NCBI GenBank assembly: GCA_964354495.1 | Contig: CAYHAA010000044.1 | Location: 1-5,442, forward strand | Direction of reading: 5' to 3' | DNA from: an uncultured archaeon | Lineage (GTDB): Archaea; Asgardarchaeota; Thorarchaeia; Thorarchaeales; Thorarchaeaceae | DNA: 5,442 bases | Part shown: positions 1 through 5,442 of the stretch, piece by piece | Layout: each line of letters opens with the position of its first letter | Numbering within the stretch: the stretch's first letter is position 1 | Notes under the pieces: model-generated | Databases searched by the model: none | Seen by the model: only the letters and a program-made list of their open reading frames with translations | What the model was told of the DNA's origin: nothing | Made by a program: the position numbers and the translations under genes

Positions 1-1871
1 TGACCAAGAGCCTCACGTCTATAACGCACGCCCTCGATCATCATCCCCCACAGGTTAGCTGAAAGATTCCAGCTATGTCTTTGCATTCCTCCCTTTCCTT
101 GGAACGAACGAAGGTCTTCAAAGTAGATGGTCTTCACACCATGCTGTTCACAGAACCACACGGTCTCAGCGGCGATCTGATGGGAGATCTCCTTGTCTAG
201 GCGACGGACTTTCTGCCACACTGACTCCAGCTCCTGTTCCTTCTTGAGGATGATAGCTGGAGGCTGCTGCCTAGCATGTTTCTTCTCCCAGTTGTTGCGC
301 TTTCTCGCAATCTGTGACATTAGAACTCTGGTTTCTTGTCGCAATCTCTCTCGCTTTTCAAATAGCTCCTGTCTTCCTATCATGGTCTCCTCGTAGGTAC
401 CATCCCCATTCTTGATGGATACTACCATCGAGTGCCTGAGTCCCCTGTCAACACCAGCCCTTCTCTTTCGGGTAGATAGCACTGGAAGGGTGGTCTTCAG
501 TAGGTCCTCATCAGGGGACATGAAGGGTATGTTCAAGGTGACTCTCTTTCCTTCAATCTTGACCAGTGGTGGTGCTGACCTTCTCGATTTCTTCAGCTCA
601 AATGCAATTTTCTTCAAATCGTGAATTCGAATCTCATTCTTCTCTGGTTGAACTCGTTCTCTAGCAAGCTCACGGGTGAACTGCTGAATCTTTATTGTAT
701 TCTCTAATTGGTTACTCATGTCCTCAAAACATGCAGCTCGATAGTCAAGCTGCATAGCTCGTTGGATATGACCTTGTGCTCTTGCTTCCTGTGCCTTTCT
801 CCTTGCTCTTGCAGCCTTTCTAGGAAGCCAGTTCAAGAATCTCAGTCGTACTGTCTGACTCTTGTATGGTGAAGGAGTATCTTGTTCATGACCTACTATT
901 CCCGGAGGGGTCTTGATGTAGAGAATGATCTCATCCTCTCTCTCTGGGTCTTGCTGGAACCAGTACCCCTGACCAGTGGTGTTCTCTGTAGAGGCTGCAA
1001 AGTCCACTGTATGTTTCTGGAAGGTTGGATTGATGAATGGAAATCCAATCTTTTTCCATGCTTTGACTTGCTCAATAATCAATGTCTGAGTTCTCAATCT
1101 ATCTGGAGATTTTTCATCTAGTAGCTCCCGAGTACTTCTCCGCTCATCTTTCTCTGGTGGATAAGCTTCACGTACCTTTGACCTCAGAGCACTCTTCACC
1201 TGTCGGCAGGCTGAGAGAGCATAGTGATAGGAACCATTAGACTTCTTCTCAATGGCGTCTTTTACTCTTCGAATGATGTCTGATGGAATCCTTCTATTCT
1301 TCATCAGTCGCATGAGTTGTTCATCATCAGATGCAAGGATGTCTAGTAGTGAATTCACGAGTCTTCGACGAGTATAGGTAGCAAGTATGATTCGAGCTGC
1401 GGTCTCAAGGGCGTTACGATATAGTCTTTCATATACAAGTTGTCCAAATTCGTTCTCAGGTTCCCATTTGAGCCGTTGTTCTTTTCGTAGGACCAGATAT
1501 ACCATTCCTCTACAATCATCTAGTTCTTCTCCCAGCATACTCAAATAAACAGAGTCAGCAAACGCCTTTTCCAAGATTAGATTCACTACTTTTCGATAGC
1601 TATTGAAACTCTGAGAGAGAACTGAAAAATCCAAATTGCTACATTTACGACCACTGAGTTCCCGAAGCATATCAGATGGAACAACAGTGGTTAAAGGTCT
1701 TCTATCCAGTCCCTTACGAGCTACAACTCTAGAGTACGAATTCAAGGCGAACTTTTGGACAAGAAGAGTCGATGATGGGTAACTTAAAATATCGTCCATT
1801 GTTTTTTGCGCTGGTTTTACATGAGTAGGAACCATCTGCTCGCGGGGACGACGCCGCGAATCTTTCTTCAT
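1..1871 (-). CDS. tnpB: Large TnpB/Cas12-like RuvC-domain RNA-guided endonuclease (3'-truncated by the window edge; >=623 aa)
   Basis: Manual translation gives a stop-free frame from ATG at 1871-1869 to the window edge: MKKDSRRRPREQMVPTH...RAGVDRGLRHSMVVSI...VWQKVRRLDKEISHQIAAETVWFCEQHGVKTIYFEDLRSFQG...LWGMMIEGVRYRREALG. RuvC-I GVDxG Asp is D475 (codon 449-447). A basic bridge-helix-like segment follows, then RuvC-II hhhEDL Glu E585 (119-117), then a Wxxh...hxY helix typical of TnpB/Cas12f. N-terminal TnpB-like motifs FNSYRKVVNLIL (aa 89-100) and GFPFINPTF (aa 276-284). GGTGA Shine-Dalgarno 7 nt upstream. The symbol is family-level only; TnpB versus Cas12 cannot be decided from this window. 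Confidence 0.88.
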   Translation of the reverse strand, partial: MKKDSRRRPREQMVPTHVKPAQKTMDDILSYPSSTLLVQKFALNSYSRVVARKGLDRRPLTTVVPSDMLRELSGRKCSNLDFSVLSQSFNSYRKVVNLILEKAFADSVYLSMLGEELDDCRGMVYLVLRKEQRLKWEPENEFGQLVYERLYRNALETAARIILATYTRRRLVNSLLDILASDDEQLMRLMKNRRIPSDIIRRVKDAIEKKSNGSYHYALSACRQVKSALRSKVREAYPPEKDERRSTRELLDEKSPDRLRTQTLIIEQVKAWKKIGFPFINPTFQKHTVDFAASTENTTGQGYWFQQDPEREDEIILYIKTPPGIVGHEQDTPSPYKSQTVRLRFLNWLPRKAARARRKAQEARAQGHIQRAMQLDYRAACFEDMSNQLENTIKIQQFTRELARERVQPEKNEIRIHDLKKIAFELKKSRRSAPPLVKIEGKRVTLNIPFMSPDEDLLKTTLPVLSTRKRRAGVDRGLRHSMVVSIKNGDGTYEETMIGRQELFEKRERLRQETRVLMSQIARKRNNWEKKHARQQPPAIILKKEQELESVWQKVRRLDKEISHQIAAETVWFCEQHGVKTIYFEDLRSFQGKGGMQRHSWNLSANLWGMMIEGVRYRREALG

Positions 1872-1878
1872 CGACACT

Positions 1879-1883
1879 TCACC
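1879..1883 (-). promoter_or_regulatory. Archaeal-type Shine-Dalgarno GGTGA for the TnpB/Cas12-like gene
   Basis: Plus-strand tcacc at 1879-1883 reads GGTGA on the minus strand, 7 nt upstream of ATG 1871. Confidence 0.6.
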
Positions 1884-1903
1884 AAAGTATTTTCTTGACC
1901 AGG

Positions 1904-1911
1904 ATATATAA
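1904..1911 (-). promoter_or_regulatory. Putative archaeal TATA box (TTATATAT) of the TnpB/Cas12-like gene
   Basis: Minus strand reads TTATATAT from 1911 to 1904, about 33-40 nt upstream of the ATG. This predicts a TSS near 1880-1885 and a very short leader. Confidence 0.55.
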
Positions 1912-1931
1912 GCCCATACTACGTATGGGCT
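1911..1931. repeat. Perfect 9-bp inverted repeat AGCCCATAC-tac-GTATGGGCT
   Basis: 1911-1919 agcccatac is the exact reverse complement of 1923-1931 gtatgggct, with a 3-nt spacer. The arms are GC-richer than the surrounding AT-rich spacer. Function (operator or IS-end hairpin) is unknown. Confidence 0.9.
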
Positions 1932-1933
1932 AC

Positions 1934-1941
1934 TTAATATA
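1934..1941 (+). promoter_or_regulatory. Possible plus-strand TATA box (TTAATATA), mirror of the minus-strand TATA across the palindrome
   Basis: TTAATATA lies directly right of the inverted repeat. It is >110 nt from the nearest plus-strand ATG, so it may be chance in AT-rich DNA. Confidence 0.3.
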
Positions 1942-2043
1942 CCAGAGTTAATGATTAGATGATTATTTGATACTCCAAAATGAATTAGATGGAGAAAATA
2001 ACCTAAGATAAGAAGACCACCCTAGAAATAATACTCCTAAAAT

Positions 2044-2057
2044 ACAAAGATAAATAT
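2044..2057 (+). promoter_or_regulatory. Possible BRE/TATA (acaaaga-TAAATAT) for a leaderless transcript starting at ATG 2083
   Basis: An A-rich BRE-like run is followed by TAAATAT at 2051-2057, 26-32 nt upstream of ATG 2083, typical archaeal leaderless spacing. No clear SD precedes either ATG. Confidence 0.35.
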
Positions 2058-5000
2058 GAAACTGCTGAGATATACTAGTGCGATGGCTCAATCAAGAGGA
2101 CGCCCAGTAAGACCAATACCTGTACACCCAGAGCGGGTGATATCGAGGGCAGTGAAGGCGGGACTCTCAGCCACCATCAGGCTACAACGAAATATTGTCA
2201 ATAAGAGGACAAAGAAATACTACGAACGTTCGTTCAATAACTGGAGTATCAGGCAACAGGTCTATCGAATCACAAAGGAACGAGGAACTCCAGATTTCTC
2301 TCACGTCAGTAAGGCAGAGGCCTCTATCAGAGATAACACACGACTGATGTTCTTTGAGAACGCAGCCAAGTATGGTTTTACTGAAGTCAGTAGACAGAAG
2401 AATGCAGACGATACCGTTTCTCCTCTCAACCAACGGTTCAATGCATGTGGTGCAGTTGTCCGAGAGAACTCCGAGATCATGTTCCCTTTCCCGGAACCAG
2501 TGAGTTTTGGGACACACACCAGACGACACGGTAAAGCCAGAAAGGAGTATAGACGCGCAGGATATGATGGGTCATCTTTTGCACCTCAGGTGATTCTTGC
2601 TCATCCAGACCTTCCCTCACTTGACTTTGGTGATGCTGTTCGTAGCCATAATGAGTATCTTTCGACCTTCTGTGCAATCCATGATGTTCCCGTGAAAGAA
2701 ACTACCAATTATAGTCACCTCTTCTACTTGCTGACTCGTCCATATCTGGAGCATCTCTATTCGGAGTTCAAGTGTGGCAAGGCCAACTTCCAGAAGGGCG
2801 TGAACTGGGCACTCCGCCAGGTCAAAGAGTTGATTCTTGAGGCGGGATATCAACCGACAATGTATAGTAAGCAGACGGTGACCAAGGAACGTGAGTTCGA
2901 AGAGTCAAAGAGTAAGGAGGAGAACAAGACCTTCTTAAAGAGAAATGAGAGAGCGGCAAGAGAGTTCTATGGGAATCATCCTGCAGTTGCTGAGCTTAGC
3001 AGGTTGAGGGGGATACTTGGGGATGATAAAGACACCATTGATGAGAAGAACAAGACTAGTGAAGAAGCCACGAAGGAAGATGATGATGGATTATTCACAT
3101 TACAGGATGTTGGATATATCAGGAATGAGGTGGCAAAGAGAGCACGAGTTGCTGGCTCGATTATGCACCGGAGAATAGCAGCTCTCTTCCCCAGCCCCTG
3201 GCATCTGAACGATGTCATTTTCTCAGGGGACAAGTACGCTCGTTCCTCTGACTATATCATCATCTCGGAGGTTCCCTTGCAGACATCATATGGAGCAGGT
3301 AAGGTGGACCTCATTCTCTGTGAGCGGACCATCAGTAATGATGGAAAGCAAGTCTTCTGGAGACCTGTCTTTGTCCTTGAGATCAAGACTCGGTTAGGAC
3401 AGAGCTGGTATGTTGATGCAAACTACAAGGAGTCAGAGGTCCGTCCTGATGGGAGTCCCCTTCAGCGAGTTGTCTGTGAGTTTCCACTCAGTGACTATCC
3501 CCTCAGTGACAATCTATGGGATGCCATTGTGAAGTCAACACCAAGCATTACTGCACAGAAACAGTTGGATGTCTATTGTCAAGCGCTCAGTGAGAATTAC
3601 AGAGATGGAACACAACAGGAATTGGGGCATATATTGAGGGGAGTTGTGGTCATTGAGTCCGCCTCTGACATTACTGAGATACGAAGAGTGCTGGAACAGC
3701 TCATTGTCCATGGATATGAGTCTGTGAAGAGTAGAGTCCGTAGGATTAAACGTACGGTCTTCACACCACCTGAGAGGGATAGTAGTCGTATCGCATTAGT
3801 CATGGATGGACAGCCTGGTCCTAATAGACAGGATGATGAGATGATTCAGGCTCCATGGGGTCCAGCCTACACTCCATTCAATGCCAAGAAGAAGACCAAG
3901 AGAGAGTTTCTGCTCTATGTTACTGGGCATTCTCCAACCTCTGCGGGACAGTCTGCGGCCTGGAACGCACGATATTACCATGGTCTACAGTTCCTGCATG
4001 AGATGAAGAAGACACAGGAGAATACTGAGTTTGTATGGGTCGATTTGGCAAGTCAGTTCAATGAACCTCGACTTGCAGAGGCACGCCTGCGTCTGCGACC
4101 ACGGGGGTATGCTGAGGAAGAGCTAGCCAAGGTCCAACCTGACCACATTCGAGAGTTCTTCGAGAGTATCAAGGTTAAGGGATACTTGGATGAAGTCTTG
4201 TCATTCCTGTACAGAGGCAGAGAAGTACCATCCTTTGAACTGAAGTTAAAGAAGAACAAGAGAAAGGTGATTGTTGTCACTGGGGCAGACACAATTCGTG
4301 ATGCCACTCCAACCTCTCATAGAACACGATTCTCTGAGCTCATAGACTATCTACTGAGTGGTCTTCCTGATGATGAAAAGACCACTATCGTGTGGTTCGA
4401 CGCTCCAGTCCCCTCTGTTGAGAAGTCTATTCCCTACTCAACCAGAGCTCTCAATCCCTACTATGATATATCCCCCTTGAGAGATGTGGTGACGGAGATA
4501 GTCTGGAATCTCCCAATTGCACCTAAAGGTGCTGTGCAACCCGAGAAGTGGGGACTCCCCATCATCGGTGATGCGCCCATGCATGATGATATCAGAGTCA
4601 TCATTAGACATTCTCCAACTGAGTTTCAGATAGAACTGATCCATGCTCCTCTCTTGCGAGGCTGGTCAAAGAGGTTCAGAAACAAGGGGACTGGGCGAAT
4701 CATCCGAGAACGAGAGTTGGATGATATAGTTCCTGATAAGACAGTACGGAATCGAATGAAGCTCCTCTCCCTGACCATGCTCCCTTGGCTGGTGAAACTC
4801 CAGTCAAACAAGACCCTAGTTGAGGACTCCATAGAGATCCTTCAAGAGCAATTCTCTCATCTAGAGAATGAGTTTCGCAGAGGAACGGAACCACTGGATA
4901 TTCTAAGGACTGTTCTTACTGAACCACCCTGCACCCCTCCCAGTTTGCTTGATTTAGTTAGATTCAGACTCCCAGCTGCCATGGATGCACTGTCCTATCA

Positions 5001-5442
5001 AGCTATGACCGCAGGGAAGATAAATTCCCAACGCCTCTATCGTTCTCCACGGAAGATACAGACTCAACCGGTTCAGGTAGTTCCACCATCTTCTCCAACA
5101 CAAGAGGCACCAATCATCGATAAAGATACACTAGAACATGAGTGGTTGTTTGGTGTCAAGTTCGAGAGCGACAATCAAGATATTCATTCCTGGTGGATGG
5201 TGGTTCAAGACCCCACCCATCCAGCAAGGATGCTCGTTGGTTGTTTCTCTGATGGGCCACCGGACAAGGATGGATTCCTCTGGGCCGAGAATAGGCACGA
5301 GATACTGACACAGTCCAGTCTGGATGAGATGCTCAGTTCCCTTCAGACCACAATGATTGGGAGGAAGACTGAGGAAGGACTAGAACTGTGGCTCTCCAGA
5401 GACTGTGAGGAGGCAGTCTATGCAGGGATTCTTGAGGTGAGG
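2056..5442 (+). CDS. Large multidomain protein: unknown N-domain + PD-(D/E)xK (RecB-like) nuclease + inactivated RadA/RecA-fold domain + unknown C-domain (3'-truncated; >=1129 aa from ATG 2056, 1120 from ATG 2083)
   Basis: Frame +1 is open from ATG 2056 (in-frame TAA at 2038-2040 upstream) to the last base, with no stop. Translation begins MKLLRYTSAMAQSRGRPVRPIPVHPERVISRAVKAG and ends ...RDCEEAVYAGILEVR. The start could be 2056 or 2083. Domain motifs are listed in separate features. Confidence 0.93.
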   Translation, partial: MKLLRYTSAMAQSRGRPVRPIPVHPERVISRAVKAGLSATIRLQRNIVNKRTKKYYERSFNNWSIRQQVYRITKERGTPDFSHVSKAEASIRDNTRLMFFENAAKYGFTEVSRQKNADDTVSPLNQRFNACGAVVRENSEIMFPFPEPVSFGTHTRRHGKARKEYRRAGYDGSSFAPQVILAHPDLPSLDFGDAVRSHNEYLSTFCAIHDVPVKETTNYSHLFYLLTRPYLEHLYSEFKCGKANFQKGVNWALRQVKELILEAGYQPTMYSKQTVTKEREFEESKSKEENKTFLKRNERAAREFYGNHPAVAELSRLRGILGDDKDTIDEKNKTSEEATKEDDDGLFTLQDVGYIRNEVAKRARVAGSIMHRRIAALFPSPWHLNDVIFSGDKYARSSDYIIISEVPLQTSYGAGKVDLILCERTISNDGKQVFWRPVFVLEIKTRLGQSWYVDANYKESEVRPDGSPLQRVVCEFPLSDYPLSDNLWDAIVKSTPSITAQKQLDVYCQALSENYRDGTQQELGHILRGVVVIESASDITEIRRVLEQLIVHGYESVKSRVRRIKRTVFTPPERDSSRIALVMDGQPGPNRQDDEMIQAPWGPAYTPFNAKKKTKREFLLYVTGHSPTSAGQSAAWNARYYHGLQFLHEMKKTQENTEFVWVDLASQFNEPRLAEARLRLRPRGYAEEELAKVQPDHIREFFESIKVKGYLDEVLSFLYRGREVPSFELKLKKNKRKVIVVTGADTIRDATPTSHRTRFSELIDYLLSGLPDDEKTTIVWFDAPVPSVEKSIPYSTRALNPYYDISPLRDVVTEIVWNLPIAPKGAVQPEKWGLPIIGDAPMHDDIRVIIRHSPTEFQIELIHAPLLRGWSKRFRNKGTGRIIRERELDDIVPDKTVRNRMKLLSLTMLPWLVKLQSNKTLVEDSIEILQEQFSHLENEFRRGTEPLDILRTVLTEPPCTPPSLLDLVRFRLPAAMDALSYQAMTAGKINSQRLYRSPRKIQTQPVQVVPPSSPTQEAPIIDKDTLEHEWLFGVKFESDNQDIHSWWMVVQDPTHPARMLVGCFSDGPPDKDGFLWAENRHEILTQSSLDEMLSSLQTTMIGRKTEEGLELWLSRDCEEAVYAGILEVR
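3154..3660 (+). other. PD-(D/E)xK / RecB-family nuclease domain within the large plus-strand CDS
   Basis: Ordered motif set, numbered from ATG 2056: G367-SIM-H371 (GxxxH helix); E405 (ISEVPL); G-K-V-D418-LIL; VL-E442-I-K444-T; Q503-L-D-V-Y507 (QLxxY); then hydrophobic strand LRGVVVIE. This matches the established RecB/AddB/Cas4-type PD-(D/E)xK signature with all catalytic residues present. Confidence 0.85.
3907..4656 (+). other. Degenerate (probably ATPase-dead) RadA/Rad51/RecA-fold domain
   Basis: FLLYVTGHSPTSAGQS (Walker A position, Lys replaced by Q632). FVWVDLASQFNEPRL has the same D,+5F,+9R,+10L spacing as Rad51 YIDTEGTFRPERL, with the catalytic Glu replaced by A665. KVIVVTGAD (Walker B position, Asp replaced by T742). 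PIIGDAPMHDDIRVIIR...IELIHAPLL resembles the archaeal RadA C-terminal core PIGGHILAHSATLRVYLR...IARLIDAPHL. Aligned by eye against remembered sequences. Confidence 0.62.

Follow-up and report, generated by a model that had tools for sequence, protein, structure and literature searches.

A family-wide inactivated RecA/RadA-like core within the Cas1-nuclease fusion protein of Asgard aCas1-TnpB elements

We report that the giant Cas1-like protein of an aCas1-TnpB element from an uncultured Thorarchaeon contains a RecA/RadA-like core whose catalytic positions are substituted. The window that we analysed is an entire 5442-bp contig (CAYHAA010000044.1, here C44) of a 3.3-Mb Thorarchaeota genome assembly (GCA_964354495.1). 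It carries two genes arranged head-to-head, both of which run off the contig ends: a TnpB/Cas12-like gene on the minus strand and a giant aCas1-like open reading frame (ORF; 2056..5442) on the plus strand, which is open for 1129 codons and whose 3' end is cut by the end of the contig. Since this protein combines a Cas1 catalytic domain with a TnpB neighbour, it is the aCas1 of the Asgard aCas1-TnpB elements (groups Cas1H-Asgard-1/-2). Residues 614-867 of the giant protein (3895..4656, plus strand) are, as modelled, a genuine RecA-superfamily alpha/beta core that is most similar to Rad51/RadA and their paralogues, and we consider it very likely that this region both has a RecA-type fold and is inactivated.

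A RecA/RadA-like core in the modelled structure

The structural evidence comes from two AlphaFold2 models, one of the whole 1129-residue protein built with 32 homologues (predicted local distance difference test score (pLDDT) 77.8, predicted template-modelling score (pTM) 0.73) and one of residues 596-886 alone built with 57 diverse homologues (pLDDT 90.9, pTM 0.89). The order of secondary-structure elements is identical in both models. A strand (617-623) is followed by a loop and a long helix that begins at residue 629 or 631 and ends at 653, then by a second strand (657-663) ending in D663 and, after a helical excursion, by a strand (736-742) ending in T742, which leads into a helix and more strands. 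This succession of strand 1, P-loop and helix, strand 2 and Walker B strand is that of the RecA core. In line with this order, a Foldseek search of the PDB with the domain model returned 307 matches at E<=1e-3 (best E about 2e-6, probability 1.00), led by RAD51, RAD51C, XRCC3, RadA, DMC1, KaiC and T7 gp4, and the same RecA-type structures rank first when the whole 1129-residue model is used as the query.

An exhaustive VIA-align pass over 48,161 PDB representatives gave the same picture: the top 30 or so matches all belong to the RecA superfamily, with 169-198 aligned residues spanning positions 614-867. The highest Z-scores were obtained for PH0250 (11.9), XRCC3 (11.5), XRCC2 (11.2), KaiC (11.2), Twinkle (11.0) and RAD51C (10.9), closely followed by RAD51D (10.7), RecA (10.6), Elp456 (10.6) and DMC1 (10.5), with RadB at 9.3. 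A search of the ESM Atlas likewise led to clusters of XRCC2 and RadB (TM-score 0.52). Because the Z-scores of the different subfamilies are tied, the structure alone places the domain in the RecA/RadA/KaiC/DnaB class and not with RadA specifically.

An earlier note, made from the sequence alone, had proposed a Rad51/RadA-like fold at positions 3907-4656, and both the AlphaFold model and the Foldseek comparison bear this out at the level of the RecA superfamily (E about 2e-6; VIA-align Z 9.3-11.9). The span that it gave agrees with the structural domain to within 4 codons, and the residues and strings that it quoted stand at the positions to which it assigned them.

The catalytic positions are substituted throughout the family

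The canonical Walker A signature GxxxxGK[ST] is absent from the domain. Instead, the loop reads G624-x6-G631-Q632-S633 and is 2-4 residues longer than a canonical P-loop. In this degenerate, lengthened loop (GHSPTSAGQSAAW, residues 624-636, 3925..3963, plus strand), Q632 occupies the position of the Walker A Lys and S633 that of the following Thr/Ser. Strand 2 ends in VDLASQF (residues 662-668, 4039..4059, plus strand), in which A665 lies at the position of the catalytic Glu, and the Walker B-like strand VIVVTGAD (residues 738-745, 4267..4290, plus strand) has T742 at the position of the Asp, followed by an invariant G743.

The same assignment emerges from a loose local hhalign comparison with the RadA core encoded by this genome, a non-significant alignment (probability 1.2%) in which G631-Q632-S633 is paired with GKT, with a 4-residue insertion in the loop, VDLASQF with VDTEGTF (hence A665 with the catalytic Glu) and VIVVT with LLVID (hence T742 with the Walker B Asp). 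It also pairs PIIG..H...R with PVGG..H...R and LIHAP with LVDSP. The alignment hints at a RadA/Rad51 origin of the domain, a hint that cannot stand alone at a probability of 1.2%. The three substitutions (Walker A Lys to Q632, catalytic Glu to A665, Walker B Asp to T742) and the lengthened P-loop had all been put forward in the earlier note, and strand order and loose alignment arrive at the same mapping.

How widely these substitutions are shared was determined from 57 diverse representatives of the domain (22-73% identity). None has an acidic residue (Asp/Glu) at column 665, GK[ST] is found at the P-loop in 5, and column 742 holds Asp in 18 and Ser/Thr in 38, so that the three catalytic residues occur together in 0/57. 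Position 632, which corresponds to the Walker A Lys, tolerates a range of residues (E, P, V, K, R, T, N, Q), and G631, A634 and A635 beside it are 82-91% conserved. Over the domain as a whole, G631, A634, A635, W661, D663 (kept in 56/57), G743, W780, Y794, N818 and R847 reach 82-100% conservation. Calculated over the same 32 proteins, mean pairwise identity is 0.50 in the RecA-like domain, compared with 0.54 in the Cas1-like domain and 0.40 in the nuclease.

Judged from these alignments, residues 614-867 are an old pseudo-ATPase under strong purifying selection, which lost the Walker A Lys and the catalytic Glu, and in this lineage also the Walker B Asp, before the family diversified, and which cannot work as an ATP-driven motor. 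An 'xDGW' subgroup may be nearer to the ancestral active ATPase. The earlier note had held that a fold other than that of RecA, or homologues with canonical motifs, would reduce this copy to something other than a pseudo-RadA or to a decayed allele. What we find is a RecA fold in an old, selected pseudo-ATPase whose substitutions are ancient and family-wide.

The RecA-like domain is a fixed part of a Cas1-nuclease fusion

A word-indexed search with the giant protein retrieved 84 relatives, mostly 1400-1700 amino acids (aa) long, all annotated as 'hypothetical protein' and all from Thorarchaeota except one from Hermodarchaeota; full-length relatives measure 1400-1900 aa. When 1.84 billion cluster representatives were searched exhaustively with HMMER and the domain profile, 115 clusters were obtained, all of which are giants or fragments of giants, and in near-full-length giants the domain lies at about residues 570-860. 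No canonical RecA, RadA or KaiC protein was pulled in by the profile in this search. The Cas1-like and RecA-like profiles match an identical set of 30 of 201 Asgard genomes, mostly in the same reading frames. The RecA-like domain occurs in 28/43 genomes of the archaeon's own family, in 1/7 genomes of one other family and in 0 of 150 other Asgard genomes, and carrier genomes hold between 1 and 12 copies of the giant each. Such a multi-copy, patchy occurrence fits mobile elements of Thorarchaeota.

Two short matches that at first sight represented stand-alone domains (P0105 and P0158) were rejected, as each belongs to a row of gene fragments on one strand and is part of a giant that has been broken up, adjacent to broken TnpB. 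The rows (L033 4073-9445 and L034 1920-9317, on contigs of ENA ERZ25039515) are giants broken by frameshifts, with the broken TnpB gene adjoining in L034, and represent either pseudogenised elements or assembly errors. With these two matches inspected, no stand-alone form of the RecA-like domain was found among the 1.84 billion representatives. Given the identical sets of genomes and the broken-giant origin of the short matches, the fusion is obligate as far as sampled.

Other domains of aCas1

The order of domains in the giant protein is a Cas1 catalytic domain, a RecB/Cas4-type nuclease, the pseudo-RadA core and a C-terminal region of about 750 aa that extends beyond the window. The Cas1 catalytic alpha-helical domain (residues 19-250, 2110..2805, plus strand) is identified by VIA-align together with conservation. 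Its best structural matches are 8flj_A (Z 12.9), the phage ICP1 Cas1 4w8k (12.2) and the A. fulgidus Cas1 4n06 (11.7), and the casposase 6opm (10.1) and the C-domain of E. coli Cas1 (3nke, 9.7) also score well. E101, E110, N125, N129, R136, H183, D190, D193 and R196 are invariant, and their Cas1-like spacing suggests that E101/E110, H183 and D190/D193 provide the Glu-His-Asp triad of Cas1. The usual N-terminal beta-domain of Cas1 is absent from the giant protein. A language-model atlas search with residues 20-330 gave no usable match.

The RecB/Cas4-type PD-(D/E)xK nuclease domain (residues ~349-600, 3100..3855, plus strand) is recognised by its motifs and by an alpha-beta-beta-beta-alpha-beta order in the model. 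H371, E405, D418, [E/D]442-x-K444 (E in 26 sequences, D in 6) and Q503xxxY507 are invariant or nearly so in the 32 homologues. The structural evidence for this domain comes from the whole-protein model, whose top-50 lists are filled by Cas1 and RecA-like matches. A low-confidence linker of about 30 residues separates the nuclease from the pseudo-RadA core in the model, and the pTM of 0.73 for the 1129-residue chain suggests that the domains pack into one body.

In full-length homologues the C-terminal region, which has no PDB sequence match and belongs to no Pfam family, contains an invariant H-x4-C-P ... H-x2-C-W motif. The motif lies beyond the end of the window (for example at residues ~1268-1287 of P0003; H407, C412, P413, H422, C425 and W426 of alignment A6) and is possibly a zinc site. 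Profile searches of PDB sequences with the Cas1-like, nuclease and C-terminal alignments returned noise only.

These observations extend the architecture that the earlier note had described as a nuclease fused to a dead RadA core. Both modules are present and the nuclease motifs directly upstream of the pseudo-RadA domain are invariant across homologues, as that description implied; it was incomplete in having missed the N-terminal Cas1 domain (Z 12.9) and the mobile-element context with its TnpB gene.

The TnpB partner gene and paralogous copies

The partner gene of the element (3..1877, minus strand) is transcribed divergently from the giant ORF and encodes a TnpB/Cas12-like RNA-guided nuclease, with its 3' end cut by the contig end. 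It matches NCBIfam guided_TnpB NF040570 (E 3e-7) and PADLOC Cas12u3 (E 4e-9), as well as Cas12f models. This genome holds 8 copies of the giant, one at 55% identity and six at about 29%, and the presence of about 8 diverged copies is probably why the assembly breaks at this contig.

The pairing of giant and TnpB recurs at the paralogous loci on contigs C1, C3 and C6, with TnpB-family genes of differing subtypes. The C6 copy (L031) has a TnpB-family gene at 1106-2788 (minus strand) and the giant at 3038-8140 (plus strand), and the C3 copy (L029) has them at 4073-6211 (minus) and 6401-11803 (plus). Both of these distant paralogues (about 29% identity) are thus paired divergently with TnpB-family genes, which encode 560 aa at C6 and 712 aa at C3. 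Because the pairing is kept in these distant paralogues, it predates the split of the subfamilies. Just past the TnpB gene of the C3 copy lies a Schlafen AlbA_2 gene (L029 2328-3584, minus strand; Pfam PF04326, E 5e-14).

The closest paralogue (55% identity, G000:C7:24397-28283) is N-terminally truncated; its open frame of 1253 aa starts inside the nuclease domain, and directly beside it lies a remnant that corresponds, at 85% identity, to the final 52 residues encoded by the TnpB-like gene. The truncation and the TnpB remnant identify the C7 locus as a decayed or rearranged copy of the element.

Discussion

The original description of aCas1-TnpB loci is reportedly that of Makarova et al. 2020 in CRISPR J. 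Altae-Tran et al. (2023; PMC10691335), in the accessible part of their article, report aCas1-TnpB loci in Asgard archaea, regard aCas1 as the likely transposase and cite Makarova et al. 2020 for it. The locus described here shares with them a giant Cas1-like protein next to TnpB, a restriction to Asgard archaea (here Thorarchaeota and rarely another family), multiple copies per genome and a presumed transposon nature. The aCas1 gene family and its pairing with TnpB have therefore already been catalogued. A RecA-like pseudo-ATPase domain is not mentioned for aCas1 in the accessible part of Altae-Tran et al. (2023; PMC10691335), and as a fixed part of the Cas1-nuclease fusion such a domain appears undescribed in the accessible literature, a comparison that has the domain map of Makarova et al. 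2020 outside it.

On balance we think it probable that an ancient, dead RecA core serves the aCas1 giant as a non-enzymatic module for DNA binding or assembly. More tentatively, and by analogy, we propose a specific role as a hub: the pseudo-RadA domain would act as a non-enzymatic nucleic-acid-binding and/or assembly platform, not as a motor, and would hold DNA ends or organise the multimer needed by the fused Cas1 integrase and nuclease. There are well-known pseudo-ATPases with a RecA fold that organise complexes or bind nucleic acid, among them XRCC2, the Shu complex and Elp456, and several of them rank among the top VIA-align matches of residues 614-867. Moreover, Cas1 enzymes act as multimers held by helpers such as Cas2 and Csn2, and the giant protein has neither the Cas1 dimerisation domain nor a Cas2. 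Csn2, the Cas1 helper in type II-A systems, has been described as 'an inactivated P-loop ATPase', and in type II-B systems this part is taken by the Cas4 nuclease (PMC10734277). Both kinds of helper are represented in the aCas1 chain, by a dead P-loop-type domain and a Cas4-type nuclease, and the functional logic may be the same.

Several of our results weigh against this reading. At the level of fold, the TM-scores against solved RecA cores are modest (0.35-0.42 in Foldseek), which indicates that peripheral elements differ. Sequence comparison provides no link to an ATPase: scans of the whole protein, of residues 600-880 and of residues 340-620 against Pfam, NCBIfam and PADLOC found no family at E<=1, the Pfam models for Rad51, the KaiC ATPase, RecA and AAA_25 do not detect residues 614-867, and the domain profile matched only noise and nothing relevant among PDB sequences. 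An hhalign comparison of the 57 aligned domain sequences with aligned Thorarchaeal RadA reached a probability of 0.9% in default mode and was uninformative in global mode; the equivalences of Q632, A665 and T742 rest on strand order and a weak, non-significant profile alignment, not on a residue-level superposition. Regarding inactivation, two of the 57 representatives (P0145 and P0166) have both GKS at the P-loop and the Walker B Asp, still without a Glu at column 665, and the Ser/Gly-rich P-loop, itself conserved, could yet accommodate a nucleotide or phosphate. Residues 821-845, at the position of L2, form a conserved loop rich in proline, in contrast to the flexible L2 loop with which recombinases bind DNA, and DNA binding and assembly are both roles that we infer by analogy for residues 614-867. 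A two-copy complex prediction (residues 596-886 with alignment) gave no answer (score 0.00) and speaks neither for nor against self-association.

Binding of ssDNA or D-loops, capping of host RadA filaments and nucleotide sensing had been offered as possible functions in the earlier note. Among other explanations, the domain could be a nucleotide- or phosphate-sensing switch that binds its ligand in the remodelled Ser/Gly-rich P-loop, does not hydrolyse it and gates the nuclease or the Cas1 site through its conformation. We judge this unlikely. S626, S629, G631, S633, A634 and A635 do lie among the best-conserved stretches though position 632 varies, D663 is almost always kept, and Asp742 persists in 18 representatives, two of which also have GKS; yet no Lys or Arg is conserved at 632, no acid occurs at 665, the loop is too long by 2-4 residues, and the conserved small residues would fit packing or contacts with the DNA backbone equally well. 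An inert structural spacer, that is, a rigid and ligand-free linker between the nuclease and the C-terminal region, would be consistent with the loss of all catalytic residues and with the high pTM of the whole chain, which suggests tight packing against neighbouring domains. The domain is as conserved as the Cas1 catalytic domain and more so than the nuclease, and its conserved loop residues (the P-loop remnant and the 818-847 region) would be superfluous in a mere spacer, which makes this explanation quite unlikely. Least credible of all, and in our view close to negligible, is an artefact or a decayed allele, meaning that the domain has no RecA fold or is a broken copy of an active ATPase: the gene is cut by the contig end and the repeat family has broken copies elsewhere, but the fold match is strong and consistent, the same substitutions run through 57 representatives and the family of all eight paralogues, and the ORF is open over its visible length.

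It is also conceivable, if improbable, that the domain couples the element to host recombination by docking on or capping host RadA filaments, or by binding D-loops, and so links the nuclease and integrase of the element and the breaks made by TnpB to homologous recombination. The best Foldseek matches are the filament-capping RAD51C and XRCC3, plus RAD51, and strings that look specific to RadA (PxxG..H...R and L-x-x-x-P-x-L) match the RadA of this genome in the loose hhalign comparison. TnpB elements of the IS200/IS605 type are thought to need recombinational repair for their retention, which would also favour such a link. Against it, the Z-scores of Rad51 paralogues, KaiC, Twinkle, RecA and Elp456 lie within 1 unit of each other, so that no specific affinity to the paralogues can be claimed; no conserved FxxA polymerisation motif, which would speak for co-polymerisation with RadA, is present in the 32-sequence alignment; and the Pfam model for Rad51 (PF08423), used in a six-frame search of the genome, found 6 other loci and did not detect the domain on this contig. 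A more elaborate version, in which the pseudo-RadA domain would be a built-in mimic of a Rad51 paralogue that recruits or caps host RadA at breaks made by TnpB or by the RecB-type nuclease, so that a Cas1-based transposon steers homologous recombination into copying it at cleaved empty sites, strikes us as more doubtful again. If true, an RNA-guided nuclease element would be tied directly and physically to the host recombinase.

A non-enzymatic module for DNA binding or assembly, the reading that we prefer, finds parallels in the Rad51 paralogues (XRCC2, RAD51D/XRCC3 and Csm2-Psy3 of the yeast Shu complex), which have the same RecA core. In ATPase-degenerate Rad51 paralogues, ATP hydrolysis is absent or dispensable, and these proteins bind DNA and organise assemblies. 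They differ from the aCas1 domain in being stand-alone subunits of recombination mediator complexes, whereas the aCas1 domain is internal to a Cas1-nuclease fusion, has no sequence similarity to them that our searches could detect and lacks an FxxA motif. The Elp4/Elp5/Elp6 ring of Elongator similarly shares a RecA-like fold without canonical catalytic motifs (Z 10.6; 4a8j_C, 4ejs_B) and is a pseudo-ATPase used for tRNA handling; unlike aCas1, it is assembled from separate proteins as a hetero-hexameric ring within a tRNA-modification complex of eukaryotes and archaea, with no nuclease or integrase context. Csn2 offers an analogy only, as it is not among the top structural matches of the aCas1 domain, is a separate tetrameric ring protein and is not established here as a member of the RecA fold class.

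The archaeal RadA/RadB/KaiC-like ATPases (1xu4, 2cvf, 2ekd, 2dr3) share the core fold (Z 9.3-11.9), and the strand 2 string WLDLxGxF of the aCas1 domain locally resembles their YIDTEGTF. However, GKT, the catalytic Glu and the Walker B Asp are all intact in these ATPases, which PF08423 and PF06745 recognise, whereas the aCas1 domain has none of the three and is invisible to both models. RadA/Rad51 recombinases proper carry an N-terminal helix-hairpin-helix domain and FxxA before the core, in contrast to the aCas1 giant, which has a PD-(D/E)xK nuclease upstream and no conserved FxxA column. As for the enzymatic half of the protein, Cas4-Cas1 fusions and the Cas4-Cas1-Cas2 complex likewise join a PD-(D/E)xK nuclease to a Cas1 integrase (8d3p_A matches residues 15-250, Z 9.2). 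The aCas1 giant differs in its reversed order, with Cas1 first, in having neither the Cas1 N-terminal beta-domain nor Cas2, and in the addition of the pseudo-RecA domain and the long C-terminal region.

Modules of the inactive RecA-like type were known before, and the finding alone opens no long-standing question. It does add an example from a prokaryotic mobile element to the few pseudo-ATPases with a RecA fold (Rad51 paralogues, the Shu complex and Elp456). Few relatives of the CRISPR adaptation machinery and of RNA-guided transposons are as poorly understood as the aCas1-TnpB elements, and we know of no aCas1 that has been studied at the bench; domain boundaries and targets for point mutations are now defined for the first aCas1 biochemistry. 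A strongly conserved RadA-like core that was inactivated long ago shares a single chain with a Cas1 catalytic domain and a Cas4/RecB-type nuclease, which suggests, by analogy with CRISPR adaptation, that aCas1 unites in one protein the roles that are there divided between separate Cas1, Cas4 and Csn2/Cas2 proteins.

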